Assembly (NCBI GenBank): GCA_000004985.1 | Contig: GG738878.1 | Source of the DNA: Naegleria gruberi | Taxonomy: Eukaryota | Length of the DNA stretch: 64,000 bases | Reading direction: 5' to 3' (one strand) | In this document: positions 5,327-64,000 of the stretch, in pieces | Numbering within the stretch: position 1 is the first letter of the stretch | Layout: each line of letters begins with the position of its first letter | Translations under genes and position numbers: made by a program | Notes under the pieces: model-generated | Seen by the model: only the letters and a program-made list of their open reading frames with translations | Told to the model about the DNA's origin: nothing | Databases searched by the model: none

Positions 5327-6452
5327 ATGCAATTGGCTCGGGTTGCTGATGTGAATGATCGTCAAGTATTTAAGCCTTGTACGTTGATTGATGATCAGGA
5401 GAGAGTTTTGAGGATGTATTGTGGTCGTTCTCATGTTCTCTATGAAAGTAAGTTGTTGTCTCTTTTGAAATATTGGATCTAACTATGTATTCCGAAATTT
5501 GTTCATATTTGTGCACATTCATATTTAAATAATTATTATATATTTAGCTAGGGACGGATCTTTGATAAGTTTTGGAAGAAACGACTATGGTCAATGTTCC
5601 ATTCATGAAAAGGAGGTTAATCGTCCTGTGCCAGCACTGTATAAAACCCGAACAGGTGCTGTTCAGCAAGTCAAATATCCAAAGTTTTTCTCAACTGGGT
5701 GGTTTCATTCATTGTTGGTAAAGGATGAAAGATTGTATGCTTGTGGATACTTTTCATATTCCCCAATGAGTGGTCATGTTATATTTAATGATGTGACAGA
5801 TATTGTGATTAAGGTACCATTTAAAGAGATTACATTTGTGGGTTCTGGAGATCATGTTTGTACAATAGTTGTTGATAATTGTAGAATTATTCAAATGAAT
5901 ACGAATTTAGAGGTATATAATGTAGATAATTTGAGAGAAATATGTGCATACAAGAGTGGATTTTGCTATATTTCTACAGGTGGAGTAATATATCAACCTG
6001 AGGGTAACAATATTGTACAAGCAAAGGAATATTCGAGTTTTGGATGCTATGACTTGAGGACGACAGCAGTTGGCGGTTTTTCCTTCAAATCAAGAAAATT
6101 GGAAAAGTCTATCATTGGAACAGATGAATATTCACTGGATTGCAATGTCTACTCATCATTTTGCTCACATTTTGTCTATAATACGAAAGAGAGAAAATTA
6201 TATGCGTACGGTTCCAATAGTGATCATCAACTTGGAGTAGGCACAGCAAGTGCTGCTAAAGGTTCGGAGGTTTCCTCAATTAATCAAATTCTTTCAGATA
6301 ATTCCAACTGGGATATTTTAGATATTCATTCTGGATGTGATTTCACAATTATTTCAATAGGAGTTCCATACTCGAAGAATGTCATTAGATTTAAAAATAA
6401 CTTATTGAAGAACGCTAATGCATCATTGCTGACTGATGTCAAGTTTCTCTAA
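5327..6452 (+). CDS. RCC1-like repeat (beta-propeller) protein; exons 5327..5447 and 5548..6452
   Basis: Exon 1 is MQLARVADVNDRQVFKPCTLIDDQERVLRMYCGRSHVLYE and ends GAA A|GTAAGT. The 100-nt intron ends TATTTAG at 5547. Exon 2 continues in phase (..TRDGSLISFGRNDYGQCS..). RCC1 signatures GRNDYGQCS and YGSNSDHQLGVGT are present. Confidence 0.6.
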
Positions 6453-6689
6453 GTATCTATATGGTTAGTGTGAAAAAGAACTTGGTTTGTAAACTATTCT
6501 TTAGCAGTGAAAACCAAATCCAGATGCAAATGGTCTGTCATTTAGTACAAAATCCTCAATTCCCCAATATATATTTTCAGATTCAAAGTGAATATTTCCA
6601 ACTTCTTCAACCTTTCTTATTTCCCATATATTAGCAGAATTAATTATTAAGGAAAATTTTAAAAAACATTCTTTTAAAATTAAACAAAA

Positions 6690-9600
6690 ATGTTGCACGC
6701 TTTCCACAAGCCTCTGCAAGTAAACAGAAATGGAACACAAATATTCCTATTGTTGTGTACAAAAAAGAAGCCGATAGCAACAAGAACGTTCGCGAATACT
6801 TTTATATTGTCCTCGTCGGTTCCTTCTAAAGAGTTGTTGTGGAACAAGAACATTTCCATTGATGATAAAATTAAATTCTACAGAACATTTAAAACAAATA
6901 ATCATGATTTATTGGAAATGATTGACATTTGCTTGCTGGTGGCAAATTGTTGTTCCATGATGAAGAGTGAGAAGGAATTTAAAGAGTGTTTATTGGATTT
7001 AAAAAGTTATTGTTCACAATTAAGCGATCAAACAGAAAAAAAAGTGAATGAAAAATCATGGAATTTTATAATTCAACATTTTTGTAAAGAACAAACATTT
7101 CATTCCTATGCCATTTATCTATTTAAAAGAGTTATGCAAGAGAAACAATTAGCATGTCCCAATTTATTTACATTAACTGCCATACTTAAAGTTTGCTCTG
7201 TAGGTAATACCCAAGTTGAATTTTGTGAACAAATTGTTAATGAATTAGAGCAACATGGCGCAATGAATGTATTTTTATACACTCACTTTATTAATAATTG
7301 TATTTGGAATGATGATTTGGAAAGAGCATTAGCAATTGTGTTGAATATGAAAGGCAAAGATATTGAACCAAACTATGCAATTTATATCCCACTTTTAAAA
7401 GCAGCCACTGTTAAGAAAAACATTCAAGTTGGAATGACACTTTACCAACTTGTAAAAAAGAGTAATTTAGCAAGTCCTCAATTATCAACGACAATTATAT
7501 CATTTGCATTGAAATTAAGAAAACCAGAGTTGGTAATAGAAGAAATTGAATTAGTGAAACAACAAAAATGGATGACAATCATAACATGGAATAGTTTAAT
7601 TCAAGCATATATTCAAGAGAACAATATTAAGAAAGCGATTGATGTTATTCATGAAATGAAAGATAATGGTATTTGTCCAGATTCGGCAACTTTTAACATT
7701 CTCATAACAGCTTGTGCTAATACCAAGTTATTTGCAGAAGGAAAGTTGATTCACAAAATTACAACTAACACTTTGAAAGATAATTGCTCTGTTGAACTAT
7801 TGACATCCATTATTAATTTTTATACAAAATGTGGACATCCAGAGATTGCAATCAACGAATGTGAAAAGATGAAATCAAAGGGATTAATGAATGTTGTTTC
7901 TTTTACATGTCTAGTTGAAGCATACATTCAAATAAATGAAATACAAAAAGCCATCGACACAGTTACTGAAATGAAACAATTCAAGGTTACTCCAAACGCT
8001 ACCACATTCTCCATTTTGCTTACCGCATGCGCTAAGTTGAAATTATATAAGGAGGGAATATTGATTCACAAAATTGCAAATAATACTTTGAGAGATAATA
8101 GCTCTCTTAAACTTTTGACATCAATTATTAATTTTTACACAAAATGTGGACATCCAGATATTGCAATTAATGAATGTAAAAAGATATCAAAAAGTATTAT
8201 GGATGGAATTGTTTAATTCAAGCATATATTCAAAATAAGGAAGTTCGACAGGCAATTGAAATAATCACAGAAATGCAAGATTATGGTGTTGAACCAAACT
8301 CTACCACTTTTAACATTTTACTCACAGCGTGTGCTGATTCAAAATTGTTTGAAGAAGGAAAGGCAATTCACAAACTTGCAACTGGCACCTTGAAAGATTA
8401 CTCTTCTGAACTTTTAGCATCTATTGTCAACTTTTACACAAAATGTGGACATCCAGAAACAGCCATTAAGGAATGTGAACAATTGAAATCGAAAGGATTA
8501 ATGAACAATATTGTTTGGAATTGTTTAATTCAAGCATATATTCAAAATAAGGAAGTTCGACAGGCAATTGAAGTAATCACAGAAATGCAAGATTATGGTA
8601 TTGAACCAAACTCTACCACTTTTAACATTTTACTTAAAGCATGTGCTGATTCAAAATTATTTGAAGAAGGTAAATTACTGCATCAAGCATCTGGTCAAGT
8701 GCTCAATAATCCTACAATAGAGTTGAACAATAGTATAATTAATTTTTACACAAAATGCGGACATCCAATAATAGCTATTGATCAATTTGAAAAGATGAAA
8801 ACCAAAGGATTTGAGGCAAATGTTATTACTTGGACGTGTTTAATTCAAGCACACGTTCAAAATAAGGAAGTTCGACAGGCAATTGAAGTAATCACAGAAA
8901 TGCAAGATTACGGTATTGAACCAAACTCTACCACTTTTAACATTTTACTCACAGCGTGTGCTGATTCAAAATTATTTGAAGAAGGTAAATTGATTCACGA
9001 ACAAGCAATAGAAAATGTTAAAGATTGCTCTACTGAACTTTTGACATCAATTATTAATTTTTACACAAAATGTGGACATCCAGAAACTGCCATAAAGGAA
9101 TGTGAAAAATTGAAATTGAAGGGATTAATGAACAATGTTGCTGTTTGGAATTGTTTAATTCAAGCACATATTCAAAACAATGAGGTCCAAAAGGCAATTG
9201 AAATAATCACAGAAATGCAACAATTTGGATTGAACCCTGATTCTACAACCTATACTATTATACTTAAGGCATGTACTGATTCAAACTTGTTTGAAGAAGG
9301 GAAGTTTATTCATGAACAAGCAATAGAAAATGTTAAAGATTGCTCTACTGAACTTTTGACATCAATTATTAGTTTTTATACAAAATGTGGACATCCAGAG
9401 GTGTCAATTGGAGAATGTGAAAAATTACAATCGAAGGGATTAATGAACAACATTGCTGTTTGGAATTGTTTAATTCAAGCACATATTCAAAATAACGAAG
9501 TTCAAAAATCAATTAAAATAATCACAGAAATGCAAGATTATGGTATTGAACCAAACTCTACCACTTTTAACATTTTACTCACAGCGTGTGCTGATTCAAA

Positions 9601-51224: not shown

Positions 51225-52772
51225 TTAATGATGTTTGGATTTGATTTCTTTAAATCCTAATGTTCTCTTTGTTTGTTCGTAGACTGCAAAGCTTACTGCA
51301 TGAGCTGGAATTCCCTTAATGAGAGAAGGAATGAAACCTTTGAACATGGCAGAGTAACCTTCCTTTTGGACAATTTTAACACAGGCATCAATCATTCCAT
51401 TGTAGACCTTGGCTGTCTTGACTTGTCCATGCAAATCCTGTTGAACTGTTTTGGTTGTCACTTTGAGTTGATGAGCTCCTTGAGTAATCATACGAGTGTT
51501 CAATACATGGAGAGGATAGAAAATGATTTGACTCAATAGTGAGGAGGCACTACCACAAAACATGAGACCAGTCACTGAAGGATTATTCCCAAAGACTGTA
51601 GCACGAATCCATTCATAGCTCATTAAGGAGAATCCTGAAGACCAAATAGTTCCCAAAATGGATGGAGTTAAACCTCTAAAGAATGGTACGACATATCCCT
51701 CATGTTGGGCAATTGTCTTGATGGCATCCATAATTCCTTTATATTCATCAGCAGGTGCAACAGATAGTCTAGTTTTTACGACTTCGAGAGGATAGAGAGC
51801 CGTATGGCAAGTCACACCTGAAGCTGAACCAGCAATGAAAGTTTGCCAATTTGAACCATGTCCACCATTCATATCACTGAGAATCTTTTTAACTCTCTCG
51901 AAAACTGCAAATTTAATGGCCTTCTCTGGAGCAGATTTGAGAATATTTACACCATTACCTCTAAAGAGACCCTTAATTCCACTCTCCATGTACATTTCCT
52001 TGAAACCAACCAAGATTGAAGGTGGTTTCCTTGTTTGAACTTGATATAAAATCTTGAGTCTTTCCAATGGAGCTGTAACAGTTTTACTGATAGCACCTGA
52101 AAGTGCACCAGCTATCAGTGCTTTAGAAGTATTATTGAGATAGGAGAAATTATTAGTATTTTCTCTAATTGACTTGTCCATAATTATCAAATCGACGTCA
52201 TCTCTAATGAGAGAAGAGGCATCTCTCCAATATTCTACAATTGAAGCAATATTTACATCTGGAACAAGTGTCAATAAATTACACCACTCTTCAAATGAGA
52301 TTACTCCATCTCCATTCGCATCAATTCTCTTCATTAATTGTTTAACAACTTGTGGAGCTAGAGGATAATTAGCATTGGTGTCTGTTGATTTTTGAAAAAC
52401 TTGAGAAACACCCCTAGAAACCTCATCCATATCCAAGAAACCATCACCATTCTTATCCAAATCAGAAAAGATGACACGAAGCTCCGATCTCCTCTTTCTA
52501 ACATAATTTGAAAATTCCTCGAAGGTAATTCTTTGATCATGATTAAAATCCATCTGATCAAAGGCTCCATTTACATTGGCAGAAGGGAGTTGTAGTTCTC
52601 TGATCCCTTTTTCTAATTCTTCCTTATCAATAAAGTGATCATTATTTATATCTAGTTTTTTAAATAATAATTCGAGAGAGGCATCATCTGTGTTATTATT
52701 ACTACTAGGTGATGAAGAGGAATTTGATGAAATATTGTTGCTGATGGTTGATGGTTGTTCTGTACTCGTCAT
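51225..52772 (-). CDS. calcium-binding mitochondrial carrier (SCaMC / ATP-Mg-Pi carrier type): 4 EF-hands + 3 mitochondrial-carrier repeats
   Basis: 515 aa. The EF loops are DINNDHFIDKEE, DFNHDQRITFEE, DKNGDGFLDMDE and DANGDGVISFEE. The carrier signatures are PLERLKILYQVQ, PLEVVKTRLSV and PLHVLNTRMITQ. Confidence 0.85.
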   Translation of the reverse strand: MTSTEQPSTISNNISSNSSSSPSSNNNTDDASLELLFKKLDINNDHFIDKEELEKGIRELQLPSANVNGAFDQMDFNHDQRITFEEFSNYVRKRRSELRVIFSDLDKNGDGFLDMDEVSRGVSQVFQKSTDTNANYPLAPQVVKQLMKRIDANGDGVISFEEWCNLLTLVPDVNIASIVEYWRDASSLIRDDVDLIIMDKSIRENTNNFSYLNNTSKALIAGALSGAISKTVTAPLERLKILYQVQTRKPPSILVGFKEMYMESGIKGLFRGNGVNILKSAPEKAIKFAVFERVKKILSDMNGGHGSNWQTFIAGSASGVTCHTALYPLEVVKTRLSVAPADEYKGIMDAIKTIAQHEGYVVPFFRGLTPSILGTIWSSGFSLMSYEWIRATVFGNNPSVTGLMFCGSASSLLSQIIFYPLHVLNTRMITQGAHQLKVTTKTVQQDLHGQVKTAKVYNGMIDACVKIVQKEGYSAMFKGFIPSLIKGIPAHAVSFAVYEQTKRTLGFKEIKSKHH

Positions 52773-53128: not shown

Positions 53129-55588
53129 TTATGCTGTATGGCATGTAAGGGTATAATTCTTGAATCCGGTTGCAATTGTACAATAGCTGCCTCTATTGGC
53201 AGTATCCAAATTCCAAAGCTTGACAGTTCTATCATAAGAACCGCTGCATAACCAAGTGTTTTGGTAGGATACAAGACATTTAACAGCATCAGTGTGTCCG
53301 ATAAGTTGTGACTCTCTATTCCAAGTCTTTGGATCATAAATTGAAATTGTTTGATCCTTACTACCACTACACAATAATCCAGCATGATAGCACAAGGAAA
53401 GAACGCCATTTGAGTGAGCCTTAATTTGCTTGATAAATTTAGTACCTGATCTAATATCCCAAATTCTGATATGTCCATCATAAGTACCAGCAACCAAACA
53501 ATTATAAACAGGATCATAAACCAAAGATAAAACAAAACTACTATTGTCCAATGTCATGATATTTTCAAAGTTTGGACCTGACCAAACTTTTACCTTTCTA
53601 TCTCCAGAACCACTGAAAAGAGTATTGTCACTTGCACATAAAACGTTAATCCAATCAGAGTGGGCATGAACACACTTTACACATTCTGCCTTTTCTACAT
53701 CCCATGCACGAATACGATGAGAATTTCCGTCCTTTGAACCACTGACTAAATTACCATAATAACTACATAATGCTCCGACTTTTCCTTCACATCCTGCCAA
53801 AACATGTTCACATTCGCCAGTATCAAAATTCCAAATACGAATAGAGTTATCTCCAGAACCACTGCAAATTCTTCCTTGATGGCTGTGTAATGCAGAGACA
53901 AATCTAGAGTGTCCCTTCAATGAAAGATAATAATCGGTCAATGCATGCTTATCATATCCTCTCTTGGCATGTTGTTGTTGATTGTCTTGGGCTTGAGTGA
54001 ATTCATCCTTTGATAAATCATAAACCTTGATAGAACCAACACCACCACCACTCAACAAGTATACAATTTCTCCTCCGGTCTTGTTATGATTAATTACAGG
54101 AACTGAAGTAGTGCTATTAGAACTAGCACCTCCTCCAGTACTTGTTGGAGTAGTACTAAGAACTGGGGATGAAGGTTTAATAAGAGAGGAAGGAAGTGTA
54201 CCATTACTTGCGTCACTTAGGGTTGGAGTACCACTAGATGCAGAACTGTTACTTGCAACACTGCTAGTTGTACTCTTTGGAGTAATGGCAATTGAACTAT
54301 TATAATATAAATTGTTTGGAGAAGGTGTTGTTGGAGTTGGGAAAATACGACCACTTCCAATATTTGGTGTAATAAATGGAGAGTTAACCAAAACATTATT
54401 AGTGCTATACTTTCTTGAACCAGAATTTCCACTTGTTGGAGTCATCATTATTGGTGAATCCATACCAATAGGATTAATCATTTGAATTCTATTTGGTGAC
54501 ATTTGATAATCATTAATATTTTGTGGGAAAAGTGGATCATTAATGGATGATAAACCATTTGAATTATTTACACCTCTATTTGGTGTTGCCAAAACACTCA
54601 ATCTGTTATTTTGCATGAGATTTGTATTTGGTAAATCATTACCACTTGAACCAAAGCTATTACTTCTATTGTATCTACCTGGAGTTGTTGTAACATTATT
54701 AGGAGTAGGAGATTTTCTTGGAGAAATTAATAATTGTTGGGCAGGATTGGTCATGTATGAATAAATACTATTCTCATAAGGAGATGATTTTTCAGGACCT
54801 GGGAATGTACTACCAATTGGATCATTATTATATCCAGTCCAAGATGAAGTAGTGCAACTAGATGCAGGTGATAGAGGTCTTTCAAGACCTACATTTGTAC
54901 TACCATTCATCATCATTTCAGTTGGACTTGGGCTATTACCAACAGTTGAAGTACTATTAACTTTAGTGTTATGCATCTCTTTTTGTCTGTATTCTTCTAA
55001 TTGATTTTGAAGTCTGGCAATTTCGCATTTGGCAGAATACAAGTCAGAGGATAACCTGGCAATTTTACTTTCCAAGAACATTTTTTCATTCATCCAAGTA
55101 TTATTTGCAATATGCATTGGAGGAGAACTTAATAACATTGGAGATGTAGAGTTTTGTTGTGGAGAAGTCATACCCATTGGATGATGTTGTTGATGATGTA
55201 CAGGTGTGCCTAAGATTTGTTGATTTGATTTACCAGAACTGTTACCCATTGACTTTCTACTTTTATGGATTGGTGATCTAATCATAAACTCTTCACTATC
55301 TAAATGTTGTGGTGGTGATGATTGATCATTTTCATTTTGATCAATCTCTCTGAGTAAATCCATACCGATAGCATTATTACCATTTGATGCTAGAACAGCT
55401 TGATCCATTTCTAACATGGAATTTCTGTCATAATGTTGTTCATGAGAGATTGTTTTACTATCCTCAAGTCTTGACAAGAGTGGTGAAGAGAGATGGTGTT
55501 GATGGTGTGGACTTTGGGAGAGACTATTAACTCCCCAAATATTTGTATTATTTACCTTTGATGGAGAGGAGTTTACAATGTTCATCAT
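53129..55588 (-). CDS. WD40-repeat protein with long low-complexity N-terminal half and short coiled coil
   Basis: 819 aa. The N-terminus is ~500 aa of S/T/N/P low complexity. A coiled-coil stretch reads LESKIARLSSDLYSAKCEIARLQNQLEEYRQKE. The C-terminus has 7 WD repeats (..CSGSGDNSIRIWNF.., ..VSGSKDGNSHRIRAWDV.., ..FSGSGDRKVKVWS.., ..VAGTYDGHIRIWDI.., ..CSGSKDQTISIYD.., ..CSGSYDRTVKLWNL..). Confidence 0.7.
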   Translation of the reverse strand: MMNIVNSSPSKVNNTNIWGVNSLSQSPHHQHHLSSPLLSRLEDSKTISHEQHYDRNSMLEMDQAVLASNGNNAIGMDLLREIDQNENDQSSPPQHLDSEEFMIRSPIHKSRKSMGNSSGKSNQQILGTPVHHQQHHPMGMTSPQQNSTSPMLLSSPPMHIANNTWMNEKMFLESKIARLSSDLYSAKCEIARLQNQLEEYRQKEMHNTKVNSTSTVGNSPSPTEMMMNGSTNVGLERPLSPASSCTTSSWTGYNNDPIGSTFPGPEKSSPYENSIYSYMTNPAQQLLISPRKSPTPNNVTTTPGRYNRSNSFGSSGNDLPNTNLMQNNRLSVLATPNRGVNNSNGLSSINDPLFPQNINDYQMSPNRIQMINPIGMDSPIMMTPTSGNSGSRKYSTNNVLVNSPFITPNIGSGRIFPTPTTPSPNNLYYNSSIAITPKSTTSSVASNSSASSGTPTLSDASNGTLPSSLIKPSSPVLSTTPTSTGGGASSNSTTSVPVINHNKTGGEIVYLLSGGGVGSIKVYDLSKDEFTQAQDNQQQHAKRGYDKHALTDYYLSLKGHSRFVSALHSHQGRICSGSGDNSIRIWNFDTGECEHVLAGCEGKVGALCSYYGNLVSGSKDGNSHRIRAWDVEKAECVKCVHAHSDWINVLCASDNTLFSGSGDRKVKVWSGPNFENIMTLDNSSFVLSLVYDPVYNCLVAGTYDGHIRIWDIRSGTKFIKQIKAHSNGVLSLCYHAGLLCSGSKDQTISIYDPKTWNRESQLIGHTDAVKCLVSYQNTWLCSGSYDRTVKLWNLDTANRGSYCTIATGFKNYTLTCHTA

Positions 55589-56469
55589 TGATAATACTTA
55601 GTAGTAATATATTCTTTCTTAGTAGATTTTAATAAGTTAAAACAATATTGATATGTATTTACTATCTAAATACTAGTTTGTTGTATATATCTATAAATAA
55701 TATTTTACTATTATTAAATATTTTTAAATACTTTTCAACAAGCTATTAAATTTCCTAAATAAAGAAATAATTTTTTTTTTCTAGTACTAACAAAATACTG
55801 TATTGTAGGATCTTCTCCTTCTTAAAGTATTGTTAGAGTTGGCTAGCAATAGTTACTAACTATTAGTTATTGATGATATCCAAATGTCATATTAGGTATA
55901 TAGTAGCATTATAGAAAATATGATAATGTTTGAGTGTGCACGATATAATTGGAAAGGAGTTTACCACAATAGGTAAGTGGTAAAGAGACAACATTTCCAT
56001 AGTACAATAATAGTGTATTATTATTTATAATATATAATTAATCAATTAATTTAAATAATAGTTATAGTTGTGATAATACAATAGTGGTAATAATAGTTGT
56101 GCACATTGTCCAGTATCGTGTTTGAATGGTCATAGAGTATGCATGTTACTATTGTTAATGTACGGAATATAATCAATTACTTACACTTGGGTTGAAAAAA
56201 TCTTCAACAAGCTGGAATATTAAAGAGGTGGATAATAGAGATTTGGTAATTTCATTGTCATAGTATTGTTGTTGAATGGATGGATCAGATATGGTTTGTG
56301 TTCCATTGAAGAATATTTGTTAGGTTGCCATCCGGAATTTGATCCAAGTGAGTGAGAGTATCAAATGATACAAGTAATGATGATTGGTAGTGAATCAAAG
56401 ACACCAAGATGGCCATACAGGGTCCAAGGTTCAAATAATAGAAGTCATGAGTAAACAGGGAATTAGAAA

Positions 56470-56755
56470 TAATTTAGACAAACACACATTATTAAAAACA
56501 CATACCAATATAAAGAGATCTATTAAAATCACAATATACAATTAACAACTCAAAGACTTCCTATCAGAAGAGGAGCTATTGTTCTCTCTCCAATGAAACC
56601 AAAAATGAAATACAGGAATATAAATTGGATTGAAAATAGACTATTGATGATTCCGTATGACAATGTATCTGAATATATATTCAATGAGTACAACTACTAC
56701 TATTATCTATCGTCAGCACATCATTAAAACACACATTATTTAAAAACATACCTGC
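56470..56755. repeat. direct repeat of a ~27-nt motif (AAACACACATTATT(T)AAAAACA(C)ATACC) at ~56481..56507 and ~56726..56752 inside a 2.1-kb gene-free AT-rich interval
   Basis: Seen by eye. The two copies lie ~245 bp apart, and no ORF lies between them. Confidence 0.4.
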
Positions 56756-57687
56756 TTTGACGGTAGTCGTCGTATTGAATTGTCTTCTGCTACTATCAAA
56801 GGCCGGCTAGGAAATTGAAAGTACCTTGGACAGAGAATCGAGATTGTTTTTTTTTAGATGGGTTGTGTTGCAATCATCACTTATTCGCTCTCCCTTTGAG
56901 AATATTACACCTTGCAGTGGTCAGCAGCTGCTATTGTTCTTCAGCATTGAAGAGGGAGGTCAAACACAATGCAACAATGCTTGAAAATATTCCTTCTTCC
57001 TTCTTTCTGAGAAATCTTCCACCACAGGCCTTTACAGAGAAGTGAAGGAAGAAAAGCTGCAGTTCGATTTTTGCTTTTAAAAGAAAATCAACGAGTCCAA
57101 CCTCATCATGATAATGTGGTGTGAAGTTAGAGTGTATTATAAAGGTGGATTATCATATTTAATGGATGATGCAAATGTAACATGTTGTGATTCATTCACA
57201 TATTGGAAGAATCCTCGAAAGATCCGAAAATTCAAATATTAAACGTTGAAGATTTTCAATAATGCAACATCTCCTTTGCACTAACGAGTAATACAATTAA
57301 TTATTAACAATACTCAGTGGTGTAATATGTTGGTTCAATGAACCGTTTACATATCTCGACATGTTTCATGAATGTTGTAATGAAATGAAGCTTTGAGGGA
57401 CAAACAAAAACGGGTTGAGTCCAATTTGGAAAGCAGGGGGAAGAAAATTACAATGATCAAATATGATTGGTTCTATGAAATTTGAAAAGGTATTGTAATG
57501 TGTTCCAAGAAAATAAGTTCCTTGAAGTTGGTTGTTGTAGAGAAGATCGCTAATTGACTCCCAAACAGGTTACGTTTTTGGCAATCAAGAATACGGTAAA
57601 TTCTCTCTACTCTTAATGGATTCTGATAATAATTTAAAAACAAATTGCACAGAAGATTCTTAACGAAAGATAAATTTACAAAGTGAT

Positions 57688-59236
57688 TTATTTTGTGGAA
57701 ATTTCCTTAGAAACAACCAAACTGCCCATTTCATTCACCAAGGTACGATAGAAAGCATTATAGTCAAGGATGTTACCTTTACCTCTTCTTACTTCAACAA
57801 CTGAGAAACCACCACTTGTTTCTTCAATCTTAATACTAAATGTTATAGCAGCTTGATTTACAGTGGCCATACACTTAATTTCATCGTCACCCTTTGTGGT
57901 TGGTTTGGCCTTCATTTTATCGAGTTTTGAAACGATGGCTGTTTGACATTCTTGTTTCTTTCCTTTAGCCATAAATCTTGTTTGTCTCTTAATTTTAACA
58001 GATGCATCCGAAGACATGAGTGGATTCATAGAACCCATCATTAACATGGAAGCCAAATCGAAAGCATTCAGAGTATTGACCTTAGTTTGAGAATTTTGAG
58101 CTGGTTGTGTTGATGATTGAACTTCAGTAACATCTCCAGTACTTTTAACAGAAGCATCAATTTCCTTTTCAGTCAAACTGATCTTTGATGTAACTCTATC
58201 AAGTTTGAATCCAACCTTGAACCATTTATGTTCCATAATTTGTTCAACAGTAATTCTTTTTTCTGGATCTACAACAAGCATTCTACTAATAAGTTCAGTT
58301 TGGGCACTTGTAAAGTGAGGTGGATAAGAGAATTTTCCTGATTCAATCTTGGCAAACAATCCTTTCATTGTATCATCTTCAAATGGTAAATAACCAGCCA
58401 ACATGACATACAAAATAACACCACATGACCAAACGTCGGCCTTCTTTCCGTCATAACCCTTTTCCTTCAAAACTTCAGGAGCTATTAAGGTGGTTCAAAT
58501 ATATTACATTTTCGAAATTATTACTACTAGCAAAATTTAAAAAACATACCAACATAATTTGGTGTACCACAAGTTGTCATCAACATCTTTTGTTGTCCTG
58601 ATCCATCATTACCGGAGAGTGCAGATAAACCAAAGTCACTAATCTTTAAAACATCTTCACCATCCAACAATAAATTTTCTGGTTTCAAATCTCTGTGAGC
58701 AATTCCTTGAGAATGGCAATATTCAATACCTGAAATCAATTGTTGGAAGTATTTTCTTGCTGTTGTTTCATCGAATCTCTTGGCCTCAACTATTGATCAT
58801 ATTATGTTGTTTTATATAGTTTAATAATATTATCGTCATCATCATTAAATATTATTATTAATATGATTGGATATCCGTGTTGTGTGATCAAAAAGCAATA
58901 CAAATAATTATTAATATTGTATTGAATACAAAAAAGATACGTACCAATTCTGTCGAACAATTCACCACCAGTAATCAATTCCAATACAATATAAATATGT
59001 TTAGAGCTTTGAAGAACTTCTCTCAATTGTACAACGTGTTTGTGTTTTAAAATTTTCATGATGGCAATTTCTCTCTTGAGCTGGGCTTCCATGTTTTCTT
59101 GTTTGACCATCTTTCTATCGATAATCTTGATAGCCCAGTGAGAGTTATCAGTTGTATCTACAGCTAATTTAACCTTTGAAAAAGTACCTCTACCGAGGGT
59201 TTTTCCCAATTGATACTTTTCGATTTTCTTAGGCAT
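57688..59236 (-). CDS. CIPK/SnRK3-like Ser/Thr protein kinase with C-terminal NAF/FISL-like motif; 3 exons 58945..59236, 58550..58789, 57688..58481
   Basis: Exon 1 is [36 protein letters not shown], with donor GTACGT (phase 1). Exon 2 is [63 protein letters not shown], with donor GTATGT (phase 1). Exon 3 is [34 protein letters not shown]...HKWF.., then ..[23 protein letters not shown], an NAF-like A-F-D-L-I-S motif, and a C-terminal PPI-like region. Confidence 0.8.
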
Positions 59237-59664
59237 ATTTAATATCTACGGCTGATGAATTTTTTTGAGAGTAAAAATCAATACTGTGTAGCAGCTGATG
59301 ATTTTGAGTATTTTTTTTACTGTTGATTGGAGAGTTTTATTGTTGTTATTGTGTCTCTGTAAGTGAGTGAATTGTTGTTACCTTTCATTATCTAATACTC
59401 TCTGAAGCAATCAACAATGCAATGCAGGAAGAAGAGATATAATATCTTCTTGTGTTGGTTTCCAATGGAAAAGAGATTCGACTCAGTATTACAAGGACTT
59501 TGTAACAAATGTTTTAATATTCGTGCAGTCTAATTGGTTCATTCTATTTGACACCTGTTGCGAAACTTGACAAGTTGGAAGGGAAAAGTGTCCAAATCAA
59601 TTCTTTCACTGCACACAACCAAATTTGAGGGTGGTAAAAATTAATGTCATTGAATCGTAAAGGA

Positions 59665-60508
59665 TTAAAGGTACCTCAATACAGAGTGATTTTTCTGATA
59701 GGCTTGCAATATTTCATCAACTGTTAGGAGATTATCATTATTGGAATCAGCCATTTCCATCAGCTTGGTTGCATTTTCCTCAATTATTTGTTTGATATTA
59801 GGATCATTTACATCGTTTCCTCTCGCTTTAAATGCATGAGCTCTTTTGTAAATCCAATTATATTTGAATAAATAGCTTCCAAATTTAAACACTTACGTGC
59901 ATTCCATTATATTTTCCTTAGTCACCTTACCAATATTGTCTTTGTCATAAATTTGGAAGAAGAACCGTATTAATTGCTCAGGATCACTTTCTTTGGCAGT
60001 AGGTCTCTACTATTTGATCTAGTTCTTATTACTACTTATAATAACTTACAGTAATAGACATGAAAATCTATTATTTGTTATTAGTTTCCAAAATGTTTGA
60101 ATCACTTACAAGGTATTCCTCAAAATTGACAAATCCATCCTTGTTCGTATCCATGGCTCTAAACAAATCATCAACAATAATTTCTGGAGATGATATTCCA
60201 GGTTCTGATTTGAGAAATTCACAAAAATTATTCTTTTGAGCTTTCCCTGTTGGATACCACTTGTACCACTCTGCAAATGTCACAAATCCAAATCATAATT
60301 AATTATTGATTTCACAATATTCACATCAATTAATTAAAAATAGCATTTCCTATCACTAATACCTACGTGTGTACAATCTCTGAATTTCATTTATTGAAAA
60401 TGCGTTATTAACTTGTTTTTGATATTTTAACATTTCAATTTCGTCGTCAGCATCCGAAGAAGCTTGACTGTTACTTGAAATGTGATTGCTTTGAAGTATT
60501 TGACCCAT
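59665..60508 (-). CDS. N-myristoylatable EF-hand Ca2+ sensor of the calcineurin-B-like / neuronal-calcium-sensor type; 5 exons 60367..60508, 60110..60270, 60050..60067 (18-nt micro-exon), 59897..60004, 59665..59842
   Basis: Exon 1 is MGQILQSNHISS..EIQRLYT, with donor GTAGGT (phase 1). Exon 2 is QWYKWYPTGKAQKNNFCEFLKSEPGISSPEIIVDDLFRAMDTNKDGFVNFEEYL, followed by GTAAGT. The micro-exon IFMSIT (ATTTTCATGTCTATTACT) is flanked by ATAG and GTAAGT. Exon 4 is RPTAKESDPEQLIRFFFQIYDKDNIGKVTKENIMEC, followed by GTAAGT. Exon 5 is TAHAFKARGNDVNDPNIKQIIEENATKLMEMADSNNDNLLTVDEILQAYQKN... It is collinear with NCS-1/recoverin (EVQQWYKGF..CPSG.., EFIQALSVTSRG, KLRWAFKLYDLDNDG.., DKNADGKLTLQEF). Confidence 0.75.
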
Positions 60509-60611
60509 TTTTTAATTGTAAAATAATAGAAGAGTTCCAACATAGCTCAATTCACAAATTGTCGAATATTTCGAATGAACAATAGATTTATCATAAAAGT
60601 GATAATTTTAA

Positions 60612-61121
60612 TTACTTTTGTTTTGATTGGTCAAACATTCGACGTGCTGACATATAGGAATCGTACATTGACTTGACTTGTGATTCTGAAGACCCATTTT
60701 GCTGTGAAACCCTTAAATCAATATCGGAAACAGTTTCGTGTGACTCGAAAAATTCTGTCAATACCCTTAAATTATCAACAACAAAATTGTAATCCCTGTA
60801 CACCACCTTTTTTTGATCTCGCTCAATAACATGAGCAAAATTTTCCACATCAAATACAGGAAGGTAATCACCAATGTGGCCACAATCAAAACCAAATCTA
60901 CCATCCTTTCCATAGGTCAAACCACCATGCACATGGCATTGAATGTTTTCGTAACATTTATTGAACATTGGGTGATGTTTTGGCAATTGAACATATCCTG
61001 TCCAACAAAGAAATGCATTTCTTTTCAAATAACAATCGTAACCACCTAACACAACGTGAAGTTCTCCATCCTTGCATGGATGTTCTTCGTTATCCCTTTC
61101 GAACAGCTCCTTATTATCCAT
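60612..61121 (-). CDS. hypothetical protein (169 aa) with His/Cys/Gly-rich core
   Basis: Single ORF (..HVVLGGYDCYLKRNAFLCWTGYVQLPKHHPMFNKCYENIQCHVHGGLTYGKDGRFGFDCGHIGDY..). No family was recognised. Confidence 0.4.
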   Translation of the reverse strand: MDNKELFERDNEEHPCKDGELHVVLGGYDCYLKRNAFLCWTGYVQLPKHHPMFNKCYENIQCHVHGGLTYGKDGRFGFDCGHIGDYLPVFDVENFAHVIERDQKKVVYRDYNFVVDNLRVLTEFFESHETVSDIDLRVSQQNGSSESQVKSMYDSYMSARRMFDQSKQK

Positions 61122-61912
61122 TTTTTTTTGTTATATGATAACGACTGCATAATTCGTGTCTATTTTAAATGTGCATTCCATGTACCAAACATTCGTTTTG
61201 ATTGATATTCAAAGTGTAAATGCAAAGAGGAATTTGCATTCGTTTCCTTGACAAGAATAGAACAATTTAACGAGAATGATCCTGTTTACAATGTTAAACT
61301 TCTTCAGTGGAAAAGCTTAATCATTTTGGATGACCAAACCATTAAATGATATTTTTTAAACCAGTGTATGTTTTTGAATTACTGTAAATGAGAACCTTCA
61401 AATAAATCTAATACGTCATAGGACAGTAGATGGATCTCTCAATCCAGAGCAATTTGCCAAATTAATATAAAATACCAACTAGGAAAAAAAAGTCACCAAT
61501 ATAAATTATCTAATGGACCAAACCAACAATTCAATATTAATACTTTTTACATAAAACTTTATTTTTGTAACCCAGAGGCAGTATTAAATCTGAAACATTT
61601 ATCCACTCAACTTCATCATTGCTGCAGAACTTCATCCAGGCGCAAGAATGTCGAAGGAAGCGTATTATTAATTTTCCAACACAAAAAAATATTGCACCCT
61701 CTACGCCCGCACGCAAGTGAAAGAAGAATCATTTAAAATTGGTTCATTCCAAACATCGAACCGTTTTATTTTTAAGTCATCACAAAAGAAATTTCATCTA
61801 TTGTTTGAATAGGTGCCCAACCTGAACAGCATTCTCTCATTTGTTTACCTTTACTCCGTATTAATCGTCATCAATATAACTTAGCCGCATCATCACACAA
61901 CTTTATTTTGAA

Positions 61913-64000
61913 ATGAATCAACAACAACAACAACATTTTGTACATGCTGCTACTTCCTCCTTTTCTAATTATCCATCCCAACAACAACAACAATCACTAA
62001 TGCGAACTCCATCATATCAATACCAAAATATTCCATCATCAGATTTAAATCAAATACCAATTCAACATCAACACTACACTACTCAGAGTAATAACACTAA
62101 TAATATATATTCTAACAATAGTAATAACATAATACAACCAACAACAAATAATGTTTTTGATTATAACACTCCACCACTAAAATCACATTTACATTCTACA
62201 GGGGGATCCAATAATTCTTCATATTTTCAAAATTCTCAATACAATAATTTTGGTCAACCACAACAATCTATGCACAATTACCATCATTATGGAGGAACAA
62301 CTAGTTATAAATCACCAACACACAATAATTCATCAGGGTTTAGTGTTCATCCCTCTCAAGACTTGTCATTCAAACAACAAGAAACATTTTCCAAACACCT
62401 AAATAATAATCAATCTCCAAATGTTGTACACAATTACTATCCTACTGCAACTGTTACACCTCAAACTTCTAAAATTTCTCTTGATAATTCTCCTAAACAA
62501 CATAGTCAACCAACAAAGGCCTCCAACAGATTCAGTGACAACTTCCTATCAATCACCTTCAACCGCCTTTACTCCAACAGAACTATCGAAAACCAAATCA
62601 CCTTCCAAAACTCCAACAAACTCCACTGAATCCAATGAAGACTCTGCAAGTGAGGAAGAATCTACTAATTCACCAAATGCAAGAAGAGCAAAGAAATCCA
62701 CACGTGCTTGTGAAGCCTGTAGAAGACATCACCGTAAATGTGACGGAGGTAGTCCTTGTCAAACTTGTAGTGGGAAGGGGATTAGTTGTGTATATACCGA
62801 AAGAAAAAAGAGAGGTCCAAAGAATGAGGCAACCAAACTTTTAAAGAAAGAAATTGAGGAACTCAAAGAAAAGCTTATGGTGAGTGAAAGAATGAAATGT
62901 GAATGGGAACAAAAATGTAAAGAATTGGCCAAAATGGCAGGTATTTCGATAACACTGAACGATCAGAATATGCCTATGTTTAGTAATTTACAAAACGATC
63001 AAAATAGTAATACTATGGCCTTCTCCAATACTCAGCAAACAACCATGCAGAGTAATGATCAAAGTTATCCTATTATATTCGATAGCAGTGGAGCTGTTGA
63101 TAATTCAAATCCTCTTTCCACAATTCCAGTCTTCTCAATTTCACTCTCTAATGAAGAGGAAAATAATAAGAAACGAAAGAGCGTAGAGAATAATCTTGAA
63201 AATCTGAAAAAGCAAAAATTTGACACCACTAACAGTAGTACAGAAATTGAACATTTGGATTTGTCACAGAAAAATACAGATCCCATTCCAACGGATGGTC
63301 AGAGGTTTGCCCTCTCTACAATGGTTACTCGTTTCATTAATATTTGGGATAAATTTGTCCATCCATTCCATTCCTTACTCCCTCCAAAATGGCAATCAGC
63401 AATGCCAGATCTTCTCTATGATATCATTAGAAATGATGGTGTCAACTCTGAAAATACCTTCTTCATGTACAGTTTATTATGTAATTCTGCTCGTTCTCTA
63501 GGAGATATCATGCTAAGTAGAGATTTGCACCATAAAGCAATGACATTGTACCCTCTTCATATGAACAACCCAGATCCTCGTGTAGGGTTTGCCTTGGTGC
63601 TTCTCTCCTATTACTCAATGTCTGTTGGTAGTTTGAGAAAGGCAATTGCTTATTGTAAGGATGCTCTTCGTATCTCTGAGGTGTTAGACAAACCACAACT
63701 CAATCTTCAAATGAACGCCTTCCTCTCTATTGCATCCATTTCAGATGACTATGAAGAAAGAAAAGTGAACTTTAGGCGACTGGGACAAACTAAACAAATT
63801 TGTGATGTAATCATGTCTGTCACGGGTGAAGTTCAAAATGAAATTACACACGGTGGTAATACCAATTATAAGGAATTGATTGCACAAATGGCTGACTTGC
63901 TTCGTCTCAAGAATATGTCCTCTTCTAATGTTACCTTAATGCATGAAATTGCCATTTATGGTATTTTAATATTGTGTCTTCATAAGGCAGGATACAGAGA
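61913..64000 (+). CDS. Zn(II)2Cys6 binuclear-cluster (Gal4-type) transcription factor with Q/N-rich N-terminus, coiled-coil linker and fungal-TF-like middle-homology region; partial (runs off the 3' window edge); frame change near 62505-62530
   Basis: The zinc cluster at 62703-62790 is RACEACRRHHRKCDGGSPCQTCSGKGISCVY, with spacing C-x2-C-x6-C-x5-C-x2-C-x6-C. It is followed by the basic linker ERKKRGPK and the coiled coil LLKKEIEELKEKLMVSERMKCEWEQKCKEL. The same frame then stays open to position 64000 (..FALSTMVTRFINIWDKFVHPFHSLLPPKWQ..). The upstream poly-Q/N ORF (61913..62629) is in another frame; see findings. Confidence 0.7.

Follow-up and report, generated by a model that had tools for sequence, protein, structure and literature searches.

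The CBL-CIPK module, in which an EF-hand Ca2+ sensor (CBL) is paired with a protein kinase (CIPK), has been described for Arabidopsis SOS3-SOS2 (CBL4-CIPK24), for Trichomonas TvCBL1-TvCIPK and for NgrCBL1 with NgrCIPK1 and NgrCIPK2 of Naegleria gruberi (PMC4990929), the binding and activation work in that study having been carried out on Trichomonas proteins only. A single CBL, NgrCBL1 (MGNQPGKNKQYRK...), and two CIPKs are catalogued for N. gruberi in Supplementary Table S1 of the same paper, and in Naegleria NCS-1 and calcineurin B have clear orthologues, alongside relatives that are unclassified (Inaba 2015, PMC4415241). In metakinetoplastids, SCAMK carries a calmodulin-like domain inserted into a SnRK3/CIPK-like kinase (PMC5924475). 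Here we analysed a 64,000-nucleotide stretch of N. gruberi contig GG738878.1 (hereinafter designated the window), in which an EF-hand gene and a kinase gene, both on the minus strand, lie head to tail at 57688-60508 with the EF-hand gene upstream. A sequence-only reading of the window had proposed that the two encode a physically linked Ca2+ sensor and CIPK-like kinase. The gene models confirm the neighbouring genes, their orientation and their limits: the kinase stop codon ends at 57688, and the EF-hand ATG begins at 60508. The comparisons below identify the kinase as NgrCIPK1 and place the EF-hand protein in an NCS-like rather than a CBL family. We consider it fairly probable that the two are independent neighbours joined by a rearrangement in the Naegleria lineage, with CIPK1 regulated by NgrCBL1.

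The kinase gene comprises three exons on the minus strand (59236-58945, 58789-58550 and 58481-57688, stop codon included), separated by GT..AG introns of 155 and 68 nt, and encodes 441 amino acids. Its product matches the ~398 residues that Supplementary Table S1 of Beckmann et al. 2016 (PMC4990929) shows for NgrCIPK1 (JGI 80321); as judged from these alignments, the kinase is a genuine CIPK that has already been published and named. Residues 8-265 match Pfam Pkinase at 1.5e-78, as a SNF1/AMPK-related (CAMKL) Ser/Thr catalytic domain. When all of the PDB was searched, the best chains were full-length AtCIPK23 (1.7e-105, residues 4-432) and AtCIPK24/SOS2 (1.9e-98), followed by Snf1, AMPK, SIK, BRSK and MARK, with Snf1 and AMPK reaching ~1e-77 over the catalytic domain only. 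The kinase shares with the CBL-CIPK module the SnRK3-type catalytic domain, the NAF/FISL motif and the PPI domain, and aligns end to end with AtCIPK23 and AtCIPK24, in agreement with the AMPK/SnRK-type kinase carrying an NAF motif that had been proposed from the sequence.

The NAF/FISL motif occupies residues 315-334 (58012-58071, minus strand) and aligns with the FISL segments of CIPK24 (2ehb_D, 4d28) and CIPK23 (4czt); the motif quoted in the sequence-only reading covers residues 315-328 (58071-58030). It is followed by a PPI-type C-terminal regulatory domain that includes KRQTRF (residues ~339-433, 57715-57999, minus strand) and aligns to the SOS2 regulatory domain of 2ehb_D, an SOS2 fragment crystallised with SOS3. 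The C-terminal 176 amino acids, searched alone, match solely the regulatory regions of CIPK24 and CIPK23, with 2ehb_D the best at 7.5e-7. The Pfam NAF profile PF03822 gives no match in the kinase, even at E<=10 with the C-terminus alone. Among the 120 homologues listed, a precomputed PF03822 match is held by two plant (Artemisia) proteins only and by no protist CIPK homologue. Because the SOS2 regulatory domain aligns and the protist homologues also lack a PF03822 match, we read this silence as a limit of the profile, which appears to be tuned to plant sequences, and not as a missing motif; the legend to Fig. 2A of PMC4990929 describes the N-A-F residues as conserved in all CIPKs analysed.

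The EF-hand gene comprises five exons on the minus strand (60508-60367, 60270-60110, 60067-60050, 60006-59897 and 59842-59665, stop codon included) with GT..AG introns throughout, and its 202-residue spliced translation is exactly the database protein 'predicted protein [Naegleria gruberi]' (hereinafter designated P0001). In phmmer searches of the PDB, P0001 matches NCS-1/frequenin best (6e-16), then hippocalcin, recoverin, GCAPs and KChIPs, with calcineurin B at 7e-9 and Arabidopsis CBL2 (AtCBL2) at 1e-6, nine orders of magnitude poorer than NCS-1. The AlphaFold2 model of P0001 has a pLDDT of 92.2, and its best 50 Foldseek matches in the PDB all belong to the NCS family (TM ~0.7), with no CBL among them. 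By sequence and by predicted fold, the best solved-structure families are NCS-1, frequenin, hippocalcin, KChIP and recoverin. In a placement tree that is distance-based (neighbour joining, NJ) only, with 1000 bootstraps, the P0001 group joins NCS-1 and recoverin in 85% of replicates and the CBLs in 0/1000. P0001, its metagenomic orthologue and Willaertia magna P0122 form one clade (99.8%), nested in a heterolobosean group (86%; Willaertia, Acrasis kona and Heterolobosea sp. BB2) that is distinct from canonical NCS-1. Taken together, the alignments, tree and predicted fold indicate that the EF-hand gene belongs to a heterolobosean NCS-like subfamily and not to the CBLs. Of the CBL/NCS-type assignment made earlier, membership of the CNB/NCS/CBL superfamily stands and the CBL half falls: given the choice between CBLs and recoverin or frequenin, the protein groups with the NCS proteins.

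The first EF-hand bears most directly on the idea that the CIPK lies beside its own CBL partner, the pair being a canonical CBL-CIPK module with physically linked genes. Beckmann et al. (PMC4990929) recognise a CBL by its first EF-hand loop, which is lengthened to 14 residues and usually has Ser at position X. Aligned with NCS-1, recoverin and the CBLs, EF1 of P0001 has the NCS length (WYKWY-PTG...) and the P-x-G, and has neither a Ser-rich start nor the 4-residue insertion present in NgrCBL1, TvaCBL1/2 and plant CBLs; it is not of the 14-residue Ser-initiated type. The FPSF/PFPF motif found at the C-terminus of CBLs is lacking in P0001 and its orthologues, but it is also missing from NgrCBL1 and the TvaCBLs and marks plant CBLs only. 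NgrCBL1 is a protein other than P0001 and is not encoded in the window, where its sole weak match is an EF-hand mitochondrial carrier at 51225-52772. P0001 is collinear with the four-EF-hand CNB/NCS/CBL proteins and has Gly2, as a CBL would; against this stand the EF1 loop, the bootstrap and Foldseek results, the CBL2 score, the tail and the published NgrCBL1. Family membership being refuted, we find a canonical linked CBL-CIPK pair scarcely credible.

P0001 has the four helix-loop-helix units that had been proposed, of which only EF2 and EF4 have canonical loops. EF1 (WYKWYPTGKAQKNNF, residues 49-63, 60224-60268, minus strand) is degenerate, with the NCS-type length and P-x-G and no acidic Ca2+ ligands; P54 and G56 are near-invariant across the P0001 family, and the Cys of C-P-x-G is replaced by Tyr (YPTG). 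The EF2 loop (DTNKDGFVNFEE, residues 88-99, 60116-60151, minus strand) fits the EF-loop pattern and is canonical in 3/3 orthologues. The EF3 loop (DKDNIGKVTKEN, residues 128-139, 59911-59946, minus strand) fails the pattern: position 5 is Ile, and position 12 (column 139) is Asn instead of the Glu found in at least 90% of 44 relatives; EF3 is degenerate in the L004 and Willaertia orthologues too (L004 being the metagenomic contig discussed below). The EF4 loop (DSNNDNLLTVDE, residues 176-187, 59713-59748, minus strand) fits the pattern and retains canonical ligands. The functional EF2 and EF3 that characterise NCS proteins are therefore not both present, as EF3 fails and EF4 is canonical instead. 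The sensor EF1 region of the L004 species (L004 336-500) is strongly diverged from those of N. gruberi and Willaertia (ERENNFIKFFSENKSFTNTDKQEGF versus TQWYKWYPTGKAQKNNF); either the pseudo-EF1 is evolving freely or the splice model is wrong there, at a weak GTGGTC donor.

Compared with the NCS family (NCS-1/frequenin, hippocalcin, neurocalcin, recoverin, KChIPs and GCAPs), P0001 shares the best sequence and fold matches, Gly2, the dead EF1 with its P-x-G at NCS length and a long EF3-EF4 linker. It differs in having YPTG for CPxG, a degenerate EF3 rather than EF4, a 4-residue insertion after EF2, a short C-terminus (...LRYL) and an imperfect myristoylation consensus, and in lying in the separate heterolobosean clade. 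The N-terminal myristoylation consensus (PROSITE-type, MGxxxS/T) has Ser, Thr, Ala, Gly, Cys or Asn at residue 6. P0001 had been called myristoylatable, and it does have Gly2, but at residue 6 it carries Gln, outside the consensus, and the L004 orthologue Glu; the Willaertia orthologue (MGISPS) and most family members conform to it.

We compared the arrangement of the two genes among relatives. Contigs L003 and L004, from independent metagenomes, represent the same organism (99.7% identical), and this species (hereinafter designated the L004 species) has a CIPK1 orthologue with the EF-hand orthologue directly upstream on the same strand, across a 157-bp spacer. In Willaertia magna, of the sister genus, the sensor orthologue P0122 is on a 275-kb contig and the CIPK1 orthologue (P0002/P0273) on another, of 375 kb. 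The Willaertia CIPK1 orthologue (76% identity) sits between a chromate-transporter gene and a PFK gene with no relative of the EF-hand gene detected by tblastn within 10 kb, and no CIPK lies within 10 kb of P0122. Searches around five other CIPK genes (L001, L002, L006, L012 and L014) detected no relative of the EF-hand gene; the five include three loci of a heterolobosean-like metagenome organism, negative by tblastn, and the N. fowleri CIPK2 locus, which has neither a tblastn match nor an annotated EF-hand gene. Conversely, no CIPK lies within 7-10 kb of the NCS-like genes at four other loci (L013, L015/L016, L017 and L018), among them paralogue loci from Willaertia, Acrasis kona and one further organism. 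When metagenomes were scanned using the orthologue alignment, the five loci obtained matched over just 26-28 residues of an EF loop, carried no CIPK and were uninformative. The pair recurs in the L003/L004 species, is split in Willaertia and was found at 0/9 other CIPK or NCS-like loci examined. The open-access papers searched contained no report of CBL/NCS-CIPK gene linkage.

The neighbourhoods of the separate Willaertia genes indicate how the N. gruberi arrangement differs. Downstream of the sensor orthologue in Willaertia come two small genes and then, 3.3 kb from the sensor, a WD40 gene (L013 13974-16250). The WD40 orthologue in the window (55588-53129, minus strand) is 75-80% identical in its WD40 part and has the same orientation as in Willaertia. 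Because it is common to Willaertia and N. gruberi, the sensor-WD40 neighbourhood is, on this comparison of orthologues, old. CIPK1 is located between the sensor and the WD40 gene in N. gruberi and not in Willaertia. At the Willaertia CIPK1 locus, an ABCD-type transporter (L014 16056-18050) lies 4 kb downstream, and its orthologue in the window (18706-17031, minus strand; ~80% identity, ABC_membrane_2 and ABC_tran) is 39 kb from the kinase. What is a single neighbourhood in N. gruberi is thus two in Willaertia, and in this comparison without an outgroup either the joined or the separate state may be ancestral.

The evolutionary rates of the two genes also diverge. The kinases of N. gruberi and the L004 species share 89.5% amino acid identity and their sensors 59%, the sensor evolving several-fold faster (its dN/dS is approximate, the microexon coordinates being wrong for 6/202 codons, and the 59% identity comes from a separate alignment). 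N. gruberi and the L004 species have the same NAF motif, letter for letter, and that of Willaertia is nearly identical; CBL1 is nearly identical between N. gruberi and N. fowleri. A slowly evolving partner, for example CBL1, would suit this invariant NAF helix.

By analogy with SOS2/CIPK24, the C-terminal region of NgrCIPK1 would auto-inhibit the kinase via the NAF/FISL helix, and the inhibition would be lifted when a Ca2+-loaded sensor clamps that helix. The activator would most likely be the canonical, highly conserved NgrCBL1, encoded outside the window. The NCS-like protein, like other members of its family, would most likely be a Ca2+ sensor that binds an amphipathic helix of some target. 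The adjacency would have arisen, or been kept, in the Naegleria lineage only, and each gene is probably transcribed from its own promoter.

Several observations weigh against such independence. Adjacency, order and strand are kept in the L003/L004 species at a kinase dS of ~1.2 (~1.18), and the genes outside the L003/L004 pair have no counterpart, on either side, anywhere in the 64-kb window. For its two CIPKs, N. gruberi has a single recognised CBL. NCS proteins and CBLs, as sister families, hold amphipathic helices in crevices of one kind, which makes binding of the NAF helix by the neighbour structurally conceivable. All three of N. gruberi, the L004 species and Willaertia have both genes, and when N. 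fowleri candidates were scored the closest kinase was the CIPK2 orthologue (48% identity) and no sensor match was obtained; on these scores both genes may be missing from N. fowleri. Finally, the rough chance of an NCS/CNB/CBL-type gene lying beside one of two CIPKs is ~0.3%, calculated with what we take to be ~ten NCS/CNB/CBL-type genes among ~15,700 and four neighbour slots for the two CIPKs. This figure is much higher if any EF-hand gene counts, and the pair was noticed post hoc. EF-hand genes are locally common, with two in the window and two within ~3 kb at each of two Willaertia loci.

Several of these observations speak for a genuine module, in which the NCS-like neighbour would bind the NAF/FISL helix in a Ca2+-dependent manner and activate or target NgrCIPK1, the arrangement being kept for co-ordinated expression. 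Its case consists of the arrangement conserved despite differing outer flanks at that kinase dS, a sensor from the superfamily closest to the CBLs, the surplus of CIPKs over CBLs, and the co-occurrence of the genes in three taxa with neither detected in N. fowleri. To these may be added a precedent: kinetoplastids, which like Naegleria belong to Discoba, have fused a CIPK-like kinase to a non-CBL EF-hand domain in SCAMK (PMC5924475). Of known precedents for coupling a CIPK-type kinase with a non-CBL EF-hand module, SCAMK comes nearest, although there the EF-hand domain is fused within the kinase polypeptide and the NAF Asn is replaced, whereas here two genes are involved and the NAF motif is intact. 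Against a module, the genes are unlinked in Willaertia, and none of the other CIPK or NCS-like loci examined repeats the pairing. The sensor changes several times faster than the kinase, whose NAF motif is invariant, and has a degenerate EF3 and a dead EF1; one deletion spanning both neighbours would equally account for their joint absence from N. fowleri. On balance we regard a genuine module as unlikely, and we are similarly doubtful that a CIPK was brought beside an NCS-type sensor in the Naegleria lineage and came to be regulated by it through the NAF helix.

The spacing of the genes bears on a further alternative, that they are co-regulated neighbours without direct binding, sharing a chromatin domain, a promoter region or occasional read-through and serving one Ca2+ response programme through different targets. 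From the EF-hand stop codon to the kinase ATG the spacer (59237-59664, minus strand) measures 428 bp, in line with the ~430 bp estimated earlier, and the linkage had been described as tight. However, a 169-amino-acid ORF on the same strand (61121-60612) ends 103 bp ahead of the EF-hand ATG. The 428-bp spacing is ordinary for this genome and not unusually tight, because this unrelated upstream ORF is closer still. No alignable conservation exists between the 428-bp spacer of N. gruberi and the 157-bp spacer of L004, and Rfam gave no match in 55000-61500, spacer included. The shared strand, the short spacers, the arrangement retained in two species and the role of both genes as Ca2+-signalling components speak for co-regulation; the unconserved spacer sequence, short spacing being the norm here, and the unlinked genes of Willaertia speak against it, and we consider it improbable.

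Independent neighbours, with NgrCBL1 acting on NgrCIPK1, accordingly remain our preferred account, and the firm results are modest: the kinase was already published, the neighbour is an uncharacterised heterolobosean NCS-like member, and their adjacency is a lineage-restricted feature of gene order. The locus differs from the described CBL-CIPK modules in that its EF-hand gene is not a CBL and the recognised N. gruberi CBL lies outside the window. A functional pairing of NgrCIPK1 with the NCS-like sensor is possible, though unlikely. Were the neighbour to regulate NgrCIPK1, the rule that CIPKs are decoded by CBLs only would be broken, and an organism with two CIPKs and one recognised CBL would have a second sensor. 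The locus would then be an unfused counterpart of SCAMK and a rare eukaryotic sensor-kinase pair held together in the genome, and it could represent an evolutionary intermediate for the origin of EF-hand-kinase fusions such as SCAMK or CDPK.

The region has a G+C content of ~33% and short GT..AG introns. The third exon of the EF-hand gene is an 18-nt microexon (60050-60067, minus strand) that encodes IFMSIT in the exiting helix of EF2, sits between introns of 42 and 43 nt and is required to reproduce P0001. The L004 species has an equivalent microexon (VFMSVT, L004 673-690), and in Willaertia the matching residues appear joined to the next exon. An alternative 3′ splice of the EF-hand gene, with an extra intron at 59674-59609, would give a tail '...DTFPFQLV...' resembling the CBL FPSF, and is contradicted by the database model and by both orthologues. 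P0001 ends ...HSVLRYL and its orthologues ...LQYL and ...LEYL, with the stop codon directly after.

Other features of the Willaertia loci were noted. At the CIPK1 locus (ABK040_004692, L014 10001-12281), isoform P0273 (563 amino acids) joins a chromate-transporter-like transmembrane segment to the CIPK1 orthologue, and is probably a read-through or a gene model merged with the upstream ChrA-like gene. At L017, a C2-domain kinase (6234-7904) lies 97 bp upstream of the NCS-like paralogue P0128 (8001-8697) on the same strand; it is not a CIPK, with 22% identity and no NAF motif. A similar C2-kinase lies ~10 kb upstream of P0122 (L013 1-200), and L017 and L013 each have a second EF-hand gene 1-1.5 kb downstream; the two may be paralogous segments.

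Elsewhere in the window, the ~2.1 kb between the kinase and the WD40 gene (55589-57687) stands out in a compact region for lacking a long ORF in the orientation of its neighbours, and shows no Rfam match and no similarity to the genes in the equivalent Willaertia interval. The WD40 gene itself (53129-55588) has a long Ser/Asn/Pro-rich N-terminus. The ORF at 51225-52772 (minus strand, 515 amino acids) has four canonical N-terminal EF-hand loops followed by a mitochondrial-carrier-like part; from its domain order it looks like an SCaMC/APC-like Ca2+-regulated carrier, and would be a second Ca2+-binding gene ~5 kb from the kinase. The 169-residue ORF upstream of the EF-hand gene (60612-61121, minus strand) is Cys/His-rich, with no Pfam family and no counterpart in the related-species loci. 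Further on, the plus-strand ORF at 61913-62629 encodes 238 amino acids of low-complexity sequence rich in Gln, Asn and Ser (MNQQQQQHF...).

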